From Candidatus Methanomethylophilaceae archaeon (GTDB lineage: Archaea; Thermoplasmatota; Thermoplasmata; Methanomassiliicoccales; Methanomethylophilaceae): a stretch of 64,000 nt of DNA. Positions 14,502 to 59,658 of this stretch are shown piece by piece. Position 1 is the first letter of the stretch; each line of letters starts with the position of its first letter. The stretch spans positions 1-64,000 of the forward strand of contig JBMNHS010000001.1 of assembly GCA_050950505.1 (NCBI GenBank), in the 5' to 3' direction. The position numbers and the translations under genes are program-made. Below the pieces are notes generated by a model, which ran no database searches, was not told where the DNA came from, and worked only from the letters and a program-made list of their open reading frames with translations.

Positions 14502-15905
14502 TTATCTCTTGGCGTAGTTTCTGAAGTTCTCGCAGCAGTTGATTTTGATTCCCAAAAGGTCCTCAATATTCATCTTTGCCGCGATTCCTCTGGGAGTGCC
14601 GGGGACGCCGGTGATGACACCGAGGCCCTGTTCTTCCCTGACTTCCCTGAGCTTGCACTCGTCGGAAAGGTCAAAAGCAGTGACTCCGAGCTTCTTTGCA
14701 ACGTAGTCCTTCGCTTCGTCGATCTTCATGCGCTGATCGAATTCCATCCTGGCGACAAGATCGCCGGCGGCTCTGATTCCTCCCATACCGGAAGCGACGA
14801 AGTGAGCGATTGACATGCCGGCGGGGTCGCCGACTCCAACCTATATACCGTCCACTTTTGCGATTTCCACCATTGCGGTGCTGCATCTGGTGACTGCGTC
14901 AAGAGGCGGAGTCTCGGCCATGGGGATACCGCCGACGCCCATTCCCATGTTCACGTGAAGGGGAAGGTTGGATACGTCTGCGCAACCTCTCACGAAAGTC
15001 ACCGCGCGGGCAAGGTTCCATGCAAGACTCTTTCCGGTGTTGGTGTTTGCAACGGGTCCGAAAACATCGGCACCGGCTTTCTCGGCGAGAACAACCTGTT
15101 CCTGAGGGAACAGACCGGCAACGACCTGACCGTCGTACTCGATTTCACCGTGGATACCCATGACGTTCTCTCCGGCCATGCCGAGGAGAATGTATGCGTT
15201 GGGACACTGTGCCCTGAGCTTCTCCACTCCGTGGAGGGTTCCGACGAAGTCGGCATCTCCGGCGGAGGCGGTGGTGTCGAAGTTGAAACCGTCGGCACCT
15301 GCCTTGTAAACTCTGGTGGAAACGTATTCGATATCCCTTGCTAGGTGTACGGCGGATTTCTCCGCTTCCTGCTGAGCTTCTTCGATCTTGAATTCCCTCA
15401 TGAGGTCTGCGGGGTTTCCGTAGGGTCCGTCAGGGGCGTAGTACAATCCCATGTTGGGCATTGCGCCGTAGAAGTAAGGAATGGTGAGGTTGTTCTGAAT
15501 GTTCTCCATGTCGTTCATTTCGTTGGCGATGACCGGCTTCACAGGCTTGATGCTGTAATCGGTGTGGGCGAGTTCGAAGGTATCGGCACAGAGTGTGCGC
15601 TCGTGAACAAGAGCTCCGTTGAGTCTGCTGGATGCGATTCCTCCGCCGCTGTTTCCGTTGTCGCCGGCCATGTCGAGCTGTCCCACGTCGTAGGAAAGAA
15701 CAACTTCTCTGCCGCGTTCGACGCCGACGACTCTCCTCTTGCTGCTGATGATTTCGAAAAGGTGGTCGATTTCGTTTGCATTGAGTTCCCTGACGCCTGC
15801 CATGTCGGCCGCGTCGGCGGTACCGTCCCTGATGTCCTGCATCATCTGTTCCTTGTTCTGGTACAGAGTGGATCCGTCACCGTTTCTGGTGCAGTATTCA
15901 GACAT
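14502..15905 (-). CDS. mtbB: Dimethylamine:corrinoid methyltransferase, 467 aa, pyrrolysine at codon 355 (TAG 14841-14843)
   Basis: [32 protein letters not shown]; [34 protein letters not shown]. Confidence 0.96.
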
Positions 15906-56313: not shown

Positions 56314-58434
56314 TCAAAGCAATGTGCAGAGAGCGTCGACGGCCCAACAGCCCTTGCCCTTCTTGTCGACCATGACCGGGTTGATTTCCAGTTCATGAAT
56401 CTCAGGGTTTTCAAGGGCTATGAGAGCAATTCTCTTGACAACTTCCTTAATCGCATCGATATCCGCAGGTTCGGTGCCCCTGGCACCCGAAAGAAGGGTG
56501 TATGCCTTTGTGGATTCGATCATCCGGTTCATCTGCTCTTCGGTCATGGTCGCGTGAGCCTGTGAAATCTCCGCCATGATCTCGACGAATATTCCTCCGA
56601 GACCGAAAGACACTATGGGACCGAACTGCTCGTCACGGATCATGGACAGAATGACTTCCTCTCCGGAAACCATCTGCTGCACGGAGACTCCGTCCAATCT
56701 TGCGTCGGGTACGGCGTTCTTGCAGGAAGCCATGATCTTTTCGTAAGCCTCTTTGGCTTCCTGATCGTTCTTGACTCCGACCACCACTCCGCCGACATCC
56801 GTCTTGTGCGCTATGTCGGGAGACAGAATCTTCATTACCACGGGATAGCCCATTTTCGAGCTTTCCTTTACCGCGTCCTCCGCGGTTATGACGGAAGCTT
56901 CTCCGGGAATGGGTATTCCGTAAGCCTGGAAAATCTTCTTGCCTTCGTTTTCGGTAAGGGTCTTTCTGTTTTCCTTCTTGGCGTCTTTGATGATTTCCGA
57001 TACCGTTTCCCTTCCGTTTTTGATCTTAGGGAACTTGATCGGAGTCTTGGGAATTTCTCCGCGGACGGTGAATCCTCTGAGAATGTCCAAAGCGCGCACG
57101 GCCCTGTCGGGTGTGGGGAAAGCGGGGATTTTGCCTTCTCTGAGGATGTCCACCGCAAGTTCGCACTTGGAACCGCCGGCGAAACAGACCGTGACGGGCA
57201 CGGGTATGTCGTCCCTCATTTCCACAAGCATTTCCGCCACCGCTTCAAGATCCGCAAAGTCCAGAGGCGAACCCATTATGACGATTCCGCCCACGCTTTC
57301 GTCTTTCAGAACAGCCTCGATTGCCGCCTTGAAGTATTCCGCCTTGGCGTCACCCCTCACGTCAATGGGGTTGGTAAGGCCGGCAAGGGTGGGAACGGTT
57401 TCCGTCAGAAGTTTGATTGTGCCGTCGGTGAGCTTTGCGGCTTCGACGTATTTGGCGTCGTGAGCGGCGTCCGCCGACATGACCCCCAATCCTCCGGCAT
57501 TGGTTATGATTGCTATGCCGTTCTTTTTCATGGGGCTGCAGGTGCTCAGAACACTGATTGCGTCAAAGAATTCATCGGCGTCTTTCGCTCTGTGGATGTT
57601 CAGTTTGTTGAAGATAACGTCATAGACTGAATCCGCACCGGCAAGAGAACCCGTGTGGGAAGATGCCGCCAGAGATCCGGCTTCGGTCCTTCCGGACTTG
57701 AACGCCACCAGGGGCTTGAGTTTGTCTATGCCCTCCAGAGCTTCCAAAAGCTCCGCGCCGTCGGTGATGCCTTCGATGTACATACCGATGACTTTGGTGT
57801 CTTTGTCATCGTTGAAATAAGGAATCATGTCCGACTCGCTCATGTCGCACTTGTTGCCGTAAGTCACAAACTTCGCTATGCCGAGTTTCTGACCGATGGC
57901 CCAGTCAATGATTGAAGATGCGAAAGCGCCCGACTGCGACATCATGGACACGTTTCCGACTCTGGGCATGTGATATGAGAATGTGGTGTTGACCTTCGCT
58001 TTGGGATTCAGAACGCCGAAACTGTTGGGTCCGAATATTCGGACTCCGTATTTCTTTCCGGCTTCCACAAGTTCGTTCTCGAGAATCTCGCCTTCGGGTC
58101 CGGATTCTTTGAATCCCGCGGTAAGGATACTTGCGTATTTCGTACCGGCTTTGCCCACTTTCTCGATCTCGGCGATTACGAACTTCGCAGGGACCGCGAT
58201 AACGGCCAAATCGACGGCTTTGCCGATTTCTTCAAACGAAGTGTATGCTTTCACGCCCTGTATGGTTCCGCCTCTCGGATTTACAGGGTACAACTCACCT
58301 TCGAAACCTGCGTAAATCATATTTTTAAGCAGCATTCCGCCTAGTTTTGTCTCGTCGGTGGACGCACCTATGATGGCCACCGAGTTGGGACTGAGGAAAT
58401 CACTCATAGGGGGGTAAAAAATTTTGTTGTTCAT
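56314..58434 (-). CDS. Acetate--CoA ligase (ADP-forming), fused alpha/beta
   Basis: P.SVAIIGAS, GPN..G, SQSGA, AASSHTGSLAG, NP.D, HKTDVGGV, FGLGG, EINP. Confidence 0.92.
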   Translation of the reverse strand: MNNKIFYPPMSDFLSPNSVAIIGASTDETKLGGMLLKNMIYAGFEGELYPVNPRGGTIQGVKAYTSFEEIGKAVDLAVIAVPAKFVIAEIEKVGKAGTKYASILTAGFKESGPEGEILENELVEAGKKYGVRIFGPNSFGVLNPKAKVNTTFSYHMPRVGNVSMMSQSGAFASSIIDWAIGQKLGIAKFVTYGNKCDMSESDMIPYFNDDKDTKVIGMYIEGITDGAELLEALEGIDKLKPLVAFKSGRTEAGSLAASSHTGSLAGADSVYDVIFNKLNIHRAKDADEFFDAISVLSTCSPMKKNGIAIITNAGGLGVMSADAAHDAKYVEAAKLTDGTIKLLTETVPTLAGLTNPIDVRGDAKAEYFKAAIEAVLKDESVGGIVIMGSPLDFADLEAVAEMLVEMRDDIPVPVTVCFAGGSKCELAVDILREGKIPAFPTPDRAVRALDILRGFTVRGEIPKTPIKFPKIKNGRETVSEIIKDAKKENRKTLTENEGKKIFQAYGIPIPGEASVITAEDAVKESSKMGYPVVMKILSPDIAHKTDVGGVVVGVKNDQEAKEAYEKIMASCKNAVPDARLDGVSVQQMVSGEEVILSMIRDEQFGPIVSFGLGGIFVEIMAEISQAHATMTEEQMNRMIESTKAYTLLSGARGTEPADIDAIKEVVKRIALIALENPEIHELEINPVMVDKKGKGCWAVDALCTLL

Positions 58435-58693
58435 ATAAGTTCCTATATTAATCGTCGTAATCTTCGAGTTTCGGCGTATATTATGCGAATATCGTAGAAA
58501 AAAGCATGTTTTTTTGAAGATTTAATAAATTTTTTCGACAAATGATGTATATTTCGTAGTTTAACGTCATTCAACGCAATCAACTTTCGTTGAATGATAT
58601 AATAAACCTGCGTTAATCGGTACGAAATCCGCATCCGTCACAGATTTCAACAGGAGATTTTGCGACGGTTCGTTCCGCCGTGCTCCGGAACAG

Positions 58694-58703
58694 TTCATAT
58701 ATA
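58694..58703 (+). promoter_or_regulatory. TATA box upstream of the candidate ncRNA
   Basis: TTCATATATA about 25 nt before the structured segment; no protein gene follows on this strand. Confidence 0.5.
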
Positions 58704-58723
58704 CGCCCGTGCAATACGAATAT

Positions 58724-58914
58724 CGGACCGGATTGGCGTAAGGGCGGGATTCGTGAACGCCATGTGCACGATCCGGGCAATAGCGACCCTGTACCTTAAT
58801 TGGGAACTCGCGGGAGATGCGATGTGTCATCGTTTGCCGTGACCGGGAGACAACGCAGGGTTCGACACACACCCCCGACGTAAGTCAGTGCTTCGAGATC
58901 GGCGATCCGCCGGA
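58724..58914 (+). ncRNA. Candidate novel structured RNA (~190 nt)
   Basis: Terminal helix, nested stems with G-U pairs, GNRA loop, possible pseudoknot; no SRP, RNase P, C/D box or tRNA signature recognised. Confidence 0.45.
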
Positions 58915-58931
58915 CTGTGAAAAAGTTTGTT

Positions 58932-58962
58932 AGCGCCCGGGGGACACTGTCCCCCGAACGCT
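58932..58962. terminator. Stem-loop between the candidate ncRNA and the convergent gene
   Basis: AGCG..CGGGGGAC-ACT-GTCCCCCG..CGCT. Confidence 0.6.
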
Positions 58963-58980
58963 GTTGGGGTTTGGGTTATC

Positions 58981-59658
58981 TCAGAGACACATGCAGAGTT
59001 TTCTGAGCCATGCTTCCGCTTCGTTTTGTCTCGGATACAGAGCTTCCAACTCGGCGAATTCCTTTTGGTTTCTTTCCGTTGTGGGATTGAAACCCATGAT
59101 TGTGTGACACAGTTCGTGATACATCACGTAGTCCGTCACGAAATCGGGAATTTCCGGATTGTCCAATGCCGATGACAATGAAACGACCTTCATGAGAACG
59201 GAACAGTGTCCGACCTTTCTGATGCTCGGTTCCCTCGTCCACGACAGGAACATGTCCGGATCTTTTTCGACCAGACCTGCGTCTATCAATCTGTTGTAGG
59301 AATCCGTCAGGTTCCTGTGTTCGCCTTCCGGCGACCTGGTTATGTTTCTGCTCCTTCTGAGATAGATGGGCTGCTTCGTCCTTGCGAACTCGGGCGCTGT
59401 GACCCAATCGCACATTTCTTCCGAAAAAGACGTCTCGTCCCTGATGCAGATCCTTGTGAACAGGGTTTCTGCAAGGCCTTCGATCACTCTTCCGGGGGCA
59501 TCGGACAAGTAATCCGACACTTTGAAGTCGGCCCACTTGTAGGAACGTTGCCAACGGACCTTGAAGTCTTTGTAGGCCGTGAACTCGGCGGCCACTGCGT
59601 CATATTTGTATTTTTTTCCTATATTTCTGAATATTTCCTGGAGTTCTGTGTTGTCCAT
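58981..59658 (-). CDS. YgjP/SprT-like (DUF45, M48-related) zinc metallohydrolase
   Basis: P.FV.DYVMYHELCH (HExxH); SD AGGAGG. Confidence 0.8.
   Translation of the reverse strand: MDNTELQEIFRNIGKKYKYDAVAAEFTAYKDFKVRWQRSYKWADFKVSDYLSDAPGRVIEGLAETLFTRICIRDETSFSEEMCDWVTAPEFARTKQPIYLRRSRNITRSPEGEHRNLTDSYNRLIDAGLVEKDPDMFLSWTREPSIRKVGHCSVLMKVVSLSSALDNPEIPDFVTDYVMYHELCHTIMGFNPTTERNQKEFAELEALYPRQNEAEAWLRKLCMCL

Follow-up and report, generated by a model that had tools for sequence, protein, structure and literature searches.

Archaeal box H/ACA guide small RNAs (sRNAs) are built from units described as a pair of stems with an internal loop that carries two short antisense elements, together with a kink-turn (K-turn) or kink-loop (K-loop) and an ANA box (A, any base, A) located 13–16 nucleotides (nt) from the target (PMC2584109). 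Three-hairpin representatives are known, namely Pf7, Pab40 and Afu4, which guide the equivalent of Escherichia coli position 1915 (PMC2584109); in Haloferax, stem-loop 2 of sR-h45 guides the equivalents of 1915 and 1917 (PMC7075261), and in yeast the 3′ hairpin of snR10 is the guide for pseudouridine 2923, which lies in the A-loop region of 25S ribosomal RNA (rRNA) (PMC2879522). We analyzed the first 64 kb (hereafter the window) of contig C1 (JBMNHS010000001.1) from a Candidatus Methanomethylophilaceae archaeon of the order Methanomassiliicoccales, whose archaeal genome of 1.33 Mb is assembled in two contigs, and we assign its positions 58727 to ~58950 (+ strand), with a probability of roughly 0.88, to a ~220-nt box H/ACA guide sRNA that has its own TATA promoter and consists of three hairpin units. 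We make this assignment because each of the three hairpins carries a K signature and an ANA box, the spacing is 15 nt in two of them, the internal loops are antisense to 23S rRNA, and the genome encodes the four proteins of the H/ACA ribonucleoprotein (RNP). The RNA is thus a missing annotation, neither a new RNA class nor a ribozyme.

The closest relatives in design are Pf7, Pab40 and Afu4 of Pyrococcus and Archaeoglobus, which likewise consist of three consecutive units, every one of them with an ANA box and a K-turn or K-loop; one unit guides the helix 69 site (PMC2584109, PMC2377435). This comparison was made with the published descriptions only, and the likeness consists of the architecture and the helix 69 target. 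Unlike those RNAs, the one in the window has a middle unit antisense to the A loop, no A-loop site being seen among the Pyrococcus sites in the excerpts of those reports, and a hairpin 1 with an 18-nt spacing and no target. With sR-h45, the one characterized H/ACA RNA of Haloferax volcanii, it shares the predicted guiding of helix 69 pseudouridines that are universally conserved, the use of short antisense elements (stem-loop 1 of sR-h45 has 3+5 bp), and the pattern of AUA after an internal unit and ACA after the last (PMC7075261). The two units of sR-h45 are set apart by a long spacer, whereas the three here are consecutive; its stem-loop 2 keeps UAUG unpaired, 17 and 19 nt from ACA, whereas in hairpin 3 here a canonical U-A fits at 15 nt; and its other target, equivalent to E. 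coli 2586, is situated between helices 90 and 93 (PMC2584109), a site with which the 5′ guide here cannot pair. Compared with snR10, a eukaryotic two-hairpin H-box/ACA small nucleolar RNA without K-turns whose 5′ hairpin has a processing role, the relationship is functional only. We take yeast 2923 to correspond to E. coli 2554; hairpin 2 exposes two uridines, of which this is one. An archaeal A-loop pseudouridine (E. coli 2554/2555), if true, would parallel that of yeast snR10. Our literature search found no report of an H/ACA-guided A-loop pseudouridine in archaea, which is not a claim that such a site is unpublished, and a search on the order and pseudouridylation found nothing on this RNA, which likewise is no claim that the RNA is unpublished.

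Conservation and covariation of three hairpins

When the segment 58690-58970 was compared by BLAST with 41 genomes, 23 gave matches. In the family to which the window belongs these comprised 21 of 24 genomes, at 70–88% identity; the sole match beyond that family was one 24-nt hit (E 0.0097). The homologues place the limits of DNA conservation at ~58726 and ~58955. The minimum-free-energy fold of the single sequence was no better than chance (z = −0.94 for the + strand and −1.65 for the − strand), and these z-scores are not significant. The real signal lies in the conservation. RNAalifold, applied to 19 relatives, predicted three consecutive hairpins, as laid out below.

58696..58703, + strand: TATA-like promoter box CATATATA, ~23 nt before the predicted 5′ end; read from the sequence
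58727..58947, + strand: predicted three-hairpin box H/ACA sRNA, given as the extent of the covariance-model match; a true 3′ end up to ~58963 is possible
58728..58776, + strand: hairpin 1; lower stem 58728-37/58766-76, upper stem 58743-46/58758-61, 5′ loop 58738-42, 3′ loop 58762-65
58747-57, + strand: K-loop signature of hairpin 1 (G58748.A58756, A58749.G58755)
58780..58782, + strand: ANA box 1, AUA here and ACA or AGA in relatives; 18 nt past the top of the 3′ loop
58784..58864, + strand: hairpin 2; lower stem 58784-91/58856-64, upper stem 58807-13/58843-49 with a conserved G.G
58814-15 and 58841-42, + strand: K-turn signature of hairpin 2 (G58814 A58815 with G58841 A58842), followed by the apical stem 58820-24/58828-32
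58792-58806 and 58850-55, + strand: predicted 5′ guide (core GGG 58802-04) and 3′ guide (ACAACG) of hairpin 2
58865..58867, + strand: ANA box 2 (ACA), 15 nt after A58850
58872..58943, + strand: hairpin 3; lower stem 58872-80/58934-43, upper stem 58889-93/58923-27, apical stem 58897-58904/58908-15
58895-96 and 58919-20, + strand: K-turn signature of hairpin 3 (G58895 A58896 with G58919 A58920), with the 3-nt bulge UGU at 58916-18
58881-88 and 58929-33, + strand: predicted 5′ guide (core GUCA 58884-87) and 3′ guide (GUUAG) of hairpin 3
58944..58946, + strand: ACA box 3, 15 nt after G58929

We curated this structure to 54 pairs and counted them on a trimmed alignment of the 19 relatives (A2), in which 97.5% of cells were paired and 27 of the 54 pairs had changed on both sides; none of 500 shuffles scored as high, and controls in which the structure was slid along the alignment gave 34–46%. 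A second alignment of 32 diverse members (A3), which was fitted to the model and hence leans towards the structure, gave 93.1% paired cells, compensatory changes at 49 of 54 pairs, no shuffle out of 500 as high, and slid controls of 37–48%. All three hairpins contributed to this signal. In hairpin 1 (helices 1 and 2) all 13 pairs held, eight of them with compensatory changes; helices 3–6 of hairpin 2 and helices 7–9 of hairpin 3 were each supported by covariation, with CAAC and GG invariant in the former and GUCAGU and UGUUA invariant in the latter.

The first-pass annotation of this DNA, made from the letters alone, had already proposed a structured RNA here but drew its helices differently. 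The strings it quoted all occur where it placed them, and two of its helices survive, both in hairpin 2: GACCCTGT/GCAGGGTT as the lower stem and GCGATG/CATCGT as the apical stem. The others found no support in the relatives. A closing helix (58729-35/58903-09) taken together with TCGCGG/CCGTGA and a GAC-GTAA-GTC hairpin was 78.2% paired against 78.0% for shuffles, 219 of 500 of which reached that value, and the middle pairs of the closing helix were broken in 14–16 of the 19 sequences. Two further helices, drawn as a pseudoknot, fared similarly (76.3% paired against 75.9%, with 210 of 500 shuffles reaching it), and a 'T-loop' motif had no covariation support. The conservation and covariation in relatives that were suggested as a check are both present, but for the three hairpins.

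The alignment also bears on whether the block is a small protein-coding gene, as two open reading frames (ORFs) overlap it, one of 60 amino acids (aa) at 58660-58842 (+) and one of 101 aa at 58567-58872 (−). Neither gave a match in a Pfam search. Single-base insertions or deletions occur at several places in the alignment, substitutions are paired across stems and show no three-base period, and the limits of conservation coincide with the hairpin boundaries and not with those of the ORFs. Despite the presence of both ORFs in the window, we therefore consider a coding function extremely improbable.

Promoter and transcripts

An A/T box, TTCATATATA, lies at 58694-58703, and the G+C content, 26–37% over the first 260 bp of the intergenic gap, rises from ~58700 to 55–59%, so that the earlier description of a TATA box followed by a GC-rich block was accurate. 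Similar A/T-rich boxes (TTTATAAA, TTTAAATA and the like) stand ~23–31 nt upstream of the block in all 32 homologues inspected, and although the flanking DNA differs between families, the RNA and its promoter box are retained. Transcription presumably starts near 58727, judging from the promoter box and the limits of conservation. These observations agree with the earlier proposal of a stand-alone + strand non-coding RNA with its own archaeal promoter.

Metatranscriptomes offer a glimpse of the transcript. Ten runs contained 0.30–0.42 of the sampled words of 58600-59000, and four runs from three studies yielded five short contigs of 124–209 nt, spanning 58738-58868, 58839-58946, 58744-58935, 58744-58938 and 58755-58963. 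Four of the five lay wholly within the block, and the fifth matched over 108 of its 124 letters, leaving a 16-letter loose end; in these four runs neither flank of the block was covered by the contigs. We take this as a hint of an abundant discrete RNA, not as proof.

A second hairpin has to be considered at the 3′ end of the block.

58938..58956, strand not assigned: alternative hairpin CGGGGG-ACACTGT-CCCCCG, overlapping the 3′ strand of the hairpin 3 lower stem, with which it competes, and its ACA box

This hairpin, which the first-pass annotation placed downstream of the RNA, is indeed present in the sequence and is predicted in folds of both strands. Its downstream position was not confirmed: it overlaps hairpin 3 and the ACA box. 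It is conserved within the genus only, a comparable C run after the ACA being found only in same-genus relatives. It lies 25 nt beyond the stop codon of the convergent YgjP-like gene, and it may serve as a terminator, perhaps a shared one, for one or both of the convergent transcripts. On the − strand, a T5 run follows it at 58920-24.

Features of the box H/ACA class

The lower stems of all three units contain 8–9 pairs each, in keeping with the H/ACA requirement of at least 7 bp. Above the internal loops, the upper stem of hairpin 3 has 5 pairs and a 1x2 non-canonical layer, that of hairpin 2 has 6 pairs and the G.G (7 layers), and that of hairpin 1 has 4 pairs and an N.N layer. Across the 19 sequences, hairpins 1 and 3 show no change in either the 5′ GA or the 3′ UGA of the K signature; hairpin 2 likewise keeps the 3′ UGA throughout, and its 5′ A is conserved to at least 90%. 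By this signature, each hairpin would contain a K-turn or K-loop, the motif bound by L7Ae. The A-N-A columns that follow each hairpin are invariant in 19 of 19 sequences, and the distance from the first antisense base to the ANA box is exactly 15 nt in hairpins 2 and 3, in agreement with the published 14–15 nt (PMC2377435) and 13–16 nt (PMC2584109). The final ACA after a G run is present in all 19 sequences of A2 and, read by eye, in every row of A3 except L021 (AGA). All four proteins of the RNP are encoded in the genome with scores above the curated cut-offs (Cbf5 429 bits, Nop10 73.5, Gar1 32.3 and L7Ae 96.6).

Other known classes were considered and set aside. A box C/D sRNA, which would have C (RUGAUGA) and D (CUGA) boxes at its ends and guides of 10–12 nt that stand 5 nt upstream of D or D′, had as its sole weak hit SNORD39 on the − strand (16 bits against a gathering threshold of 35), and the K-turns here lie at hairpin tips and not at the RNA termini. 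RNase P RNA and signal recognition particle (SRP) RNA are located elsewhere (C1:804398-804688 at 205.6 bits and C1:1093142-1093447 at 157.1 bits, respectively), and ARAGORN found no transfer RNA (tRNA) in the window, in agreement with the first-pass statement that no SRP, RNase P or tRNA signature is present. At gathering thresholds, Rfam matched the window only at a PYLIS element elsewhere. Rfam holds some Pyrococcus H/ACA families; in a permissive scan of 58400-59050 with E up to 10, seven chance-level hits were returned, the best at E = 0.2.

The first-pass annotation concluded from its reading that this was an RNA of unknown class or a ribozyme, and the comparison with Rfam that it proposed indeed gave no match. 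A structured RNA of some other class, be it a ribozyme, a riboswitch-like element or a regulatory sRNA, would fit both that lack of an Rfam family and the strong conservation and structure. The H/ACA architecture, though, accounts for every conserved feature, and the closing helix and pseudoknot on which the earlier view drew are unsupported. Another class is further disfavored by the location of both neighboring genes on the opposite strand and by the change of flanks between families while the RNA and promoter box stay. We accordingly regard another class as very unlikely; nothing suggests a ribozyme, and the RNA is placed instead in the box H/ACA class, which the first-pass annotation had not taken into account.

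Predicted targets in 23S rRNA

To search for targets we used the genome's own 16S (C1:697338-698807) and 23S (C1:726846-729760) rRNA genes. Both are single copy and lie ~28 kb apart, and hence are not in one operon. With the guide columns held fixed, every U of the 16S and 23S rRNAs, 41 tRNAs, RNase P RNA and SRP RNA was scored, with 1 for a Watson-Crick pair and 0.5 for G.U. In A3, the loop of hairpin 3 has GGGUCA(GUG) as its invariant 5′ bases and (C)UGUUA as its invariant 3′ bases; the corresponding bases of hairpin 2 are (U)AAUGGG(U) and ACAACCC(C).

For hairpin 3, U1949 of 23S rRNA ranked first of 16,092 site-and-register combinations, with a mean score of 9.77 against a background of 1.01 ± 1.20; the next best were tRNA-Lys U28 (8.78) and tRNA-Asp U13 (8.77). 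The site is the loop of helix 69, in the string GGGGUAAC-UA-UGACCCU, where the unpaired U is 1949. For hairpin 2, U2582 and U2583 of 23S rRNA took the top two places among 21,456 combinations (9.76 and 8.65), followed by 16S U1257 (7.74). These uridines lie in the A loop (helix 92), in the string GGGGUUGU-UC-GCCCAUUA. Pairing of at least 8 bp was possible at U1949 in 32 of 32 sequences and at the A loop in 22 of 31. When we scored 20 members of other families or divergent lineages, the A-loop site held the top four places, with scores of up to 11.45, and the pairings included a canonical configuration in which U-C is left unpaired between ACAACCCC:GGGGUUGU and AAUGGGU:GCCCAUU; in hairpin 3 of other families the second element is likewise longer (GGGUCA:UGACCC). 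We consider it likely that hairpin 3 targets helix 69 and, with somewhat less assurance, probable that hairpin 2 targets the A loop. In hairpin 2, the A that some members have as the top base of the 3′ guide can pair with U2582 and expose U2583, and a C at that position exposes both uridines. In Haloferax, the 5′-most unpaired U is the one reported to be converted (PMC7075261).

Of the 151 genomes, 108 contain the A-loop target string and 93 the helix 69 string. Wherever assembled, each string is identical except for one listed case of a single mismatch; in the remaining genomes the 23S genes are probably unassembled. The only listed altered helix 69 string (G113:C7:135838-135859) reads GGGAAC for GGTAAC; the altered base is one with which the 3′ guide of hairpin 3 pairs. 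The RNA copy of that genome is also among the most divergent, at 52.5 bits.

Guide length differs among families, as a comparison of loci L062-L079 with L001-L020 in A3 showed, being 8–9 bp in the window's own family and up to 15 bp at the A loop and 10–11 bp at helix 69 in other families of the order, so the guides have eroded in the window's own family without a change of rRNA target. Such erosion, from up to 15 bp in sister families to 8–9 bp, offers a natural series on how little pairing an H/ACA RNP needs. The functional minimum is given as 8 bp, and stem-loop 1 of the Haloferax RNA works with 3+5 bp (PMC7075261).

Several other pairings were tried and rejected. For hairpin 2, AACCC could pair with GGGUU at the E. 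coli 2586 site, but in the 23S rRNA of this genome the site has the sequence UUUAAAAC, leaving the 5′ guide unable to pair; a match between UACCUUAA in hairpin 2 and UUAAGGUA beside helix 69 involves a guide segment that is not conserved in relatives. tRNA U13 and tRNA-Lys U28 scored highly for hairpin 3 only when G.U counted as a full pair or the register was shifted, and we keep them as a low-probability alternative. An inverted, snR30-like pairing, a perfect 13-nt complement between the bottom of the hairpin 3 loop and positions 2885-2897 of the 23S rRNA, was rejected because the guide bases stay constant while four relatives differ in that segment of the rRNA. Free-register searches of the 16S and 23S rRNAs returned only G.U-rich, unconvincing pairings, and an energy-based scan put other sites first; a whole-genome pattern search for hairpin 3 targets was far too permissive to be informative. 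The loop bases of hairpin 1 vary within and between families. One candidate for it, 16S U400, recurred in 10 sequences but needs the covariation-supported lower stem to be melted.

Weighing the guide assignment

A number of observations weigh against the assignment of the RNA as an H/ACA guide with these two targets. As to the class, no H/ACA family was matched in the permissive Rfam scan of 58400-59050; the spacing from hairpin 1 to its ANA box is 18 nt, beyond the usual 14–15 nt; and the upper stems of hairpins 2 and 1 have 7 layers and only 4 pairs, respectively. Rules derived from Pyrococcus call for an upper stem of 5–6 bp and an ANA-to-U distance of 14–15 nt, with 4-bp and 7-bp upper stems found in non-functional interactions (PMC2377435); activity at up to 17–19 nt has been reported if ACA is present (PMC7075261). 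As to the targets, a search of the genome's own stable RNAs gave none that was convincing for hairpin 1, and the scans took the RNAs of the window's genome as proxies for those of all species. Pairing in the window's own genome and family is minimal, amounting to 4+4 bp for hairpin 3 (in the genome itself GUUA:UAAC and GUCA:UGAC) and 5+4 bp for hairpin 2 (likewise ACAAC:GUUGU and UGGG:CCCA). When the 11 typical members of the family were scored alone, the A loop came second (7.64) to 23S U2660 (8.05), and when G.U counted as a full pair and the 3′ guide began one base earlier, tRNA U13 outscored helix 69 (11.2 versus 9.9). The metatranscriptomic contigs reveal neither strand nor ends, and DNA carry-over is formally possible. 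Finally, the E. coli equivalents used here (1915 for U1949, 1917 for U1951, and 2554/2555 for U2582/2583) are presumed from our own alignment to the E. coli sequence. For the helix 69 loop, the assignment to 1915 and 1917 agrees with the published one (PMC2584109).

Some of these points would be expected if the RNA were an H/ACA-like, L7Ae-binding sRNA that makes no pseudouridine and, paired with helix 69 and the A loop, acts as a chaperone of rRNA folding or processing. Such a role would be comparable to that of yeast snR30 and of the 5′ hairpin in snR10. The erosion of complementarity to 8–9 bp in the window's family would suit it, as would a hairpin 1 that has protein-binding features yet lacks a target and departs from the canonical spacing, and snR10 combines a processing hairpin with a separate guide hairpin (PMC2879522). 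Three considerations lead us to judge this explanation unlikely: hairpins 2 and 3 place an unpaired U-N exactly as a guide requires, with the ANA box at 15 nt; both sites fall in regions of documented H/ACA-guided pseudouridines, helix 69 (PMC2584109, PMC7075261) and the A-loop region (PMC2879522); and 8 bp of pairing is stated to be sufficient (PMC7075261). The guide reading of hairpins 2 and 3 remains the one that we prefer.

Proposed mechanism

The steps that we propose are inferred from the established archaeal H/ACA RNP mechanism and would add no new principle to it. L7Ae would bind the K-turn or K-loop of each hairpin, and Cbf5-Nop10-Gar1 the lower stem and ANA box. The internal-loop strands would then pair with the two stretches of 23S rRNA that flank an unpaired uridine, presenting this uridine to the Cbf5 active site for conversion to pseudouridine. 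In this way hairpin 3 would direct modification of U1949 in the helix 69 loop (E. coli 1915), and possibly also of U1951 (E. coli 1917), and hairpin 2 that of U2583 and/or U2582 in the A loop (E. coli 2555/2554). Hairpin 1, which keeps the protein-binding features, would be an orphan unit without a detectable target. If so, the RNA makes two predictions on rRNA modification in poorly studied methanogen-like archaea, a pseudouridine in helix 69 and one in the A loop.

A bolder version of this scheme, which we offer only tentatively and would not bet on as a whole, is that this single three-hairpin RNA is the main and perhaps the only pseudouridine guide in these small genomes and departs from the archaeal guides described so far in two respects, with the middle hairpin directing an A-loop pseudouridine and hairpin 1 serving as a non-guide module for RNP assembly, or for rRNA processing or chaperoning, that persists in most of the order but has been lost or has degenerated in a few lineages.

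Distribution and variants

A covariance model (R1) built from alignment A2 scored the window copy at 242 bits over model positions 1–221. Among the 151 genomes of the order searched with it, 146 gave a full-length match, as did 118 of the 119 that are at least 90% complete; all seven families of the order were represented, almost always by a single copy. In a sample of the class, scanned with stricter filters that make the counts a lower bound, 27 of 71 genomes matched, among them 19 of the 63 that belong to families of the class other than the window's. The absence of this conserved single-copy RNA gene from Rfam represents an annotation gap.

The exceptions to the three-hairpin form suggest how it is organized. 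In a genome of the same genus (G001), locus L021 (G001:C19, 1442-1578) has hairpin 1 fused to hairpin 3, so that hairpin 2, the predicted A-loop guide, is absent; this two-hairpin copy scores 133.8 bits, compared with ~240 for full copies, and its last box is AGA and not ACA. In a few lineages (L078, L079), hairpin 1 is reduced to a plain short hairpin. In these variants the hairpin units behave as modules.

Gene context and other observations

The gap in which the RNA lies runs from 58435 to 58980, and its length of 546 bp, as given in the first-pass annotation for the space between the acd and YgjP genes, was confirmed by the gene coordinates. It is flanked by two − strand genes.

56314-58434, − strand: ADP-forming acetyl-CoA/acyl-CoA synthetase-like gene, 706 aa, with ATP-grasp_5, Succ_CoA_lig and CoA_binding domains
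58981-59658, − strand: weak YgjP-like gene, 225 aa, whose match stays below threshold (18.6 bits; cut-off 26)

Within the A/T-rich part of the gap, at 58568-58600 (+), is an inverted repeat, CATTCAACG...CGTTGAATG, with a sub-threshold match to CRISPR-DR53 (21.4 bits against a gathering threshold of 45, E 0.2); it is single copy and so probably not CRISPR. The Rfam match elsewhere in the window is to PYLIS_2, the pyrrolysine insertion sequence of mtbB, at 14744-14843 (−) with 83.5 bits (E 8e-19), and the organism probably reads UAG as pyrrolysine in its methylamine methyltransferase genes. Elsewhere on contig C1, beyond the window, ~17 copies of a 29-nt motif, identical or nearly so, occur at spacings of 189–417 nt in C1:646678-650392 and ~658045-658234 (−), which points to long tandem repeats in a gene or gene array.

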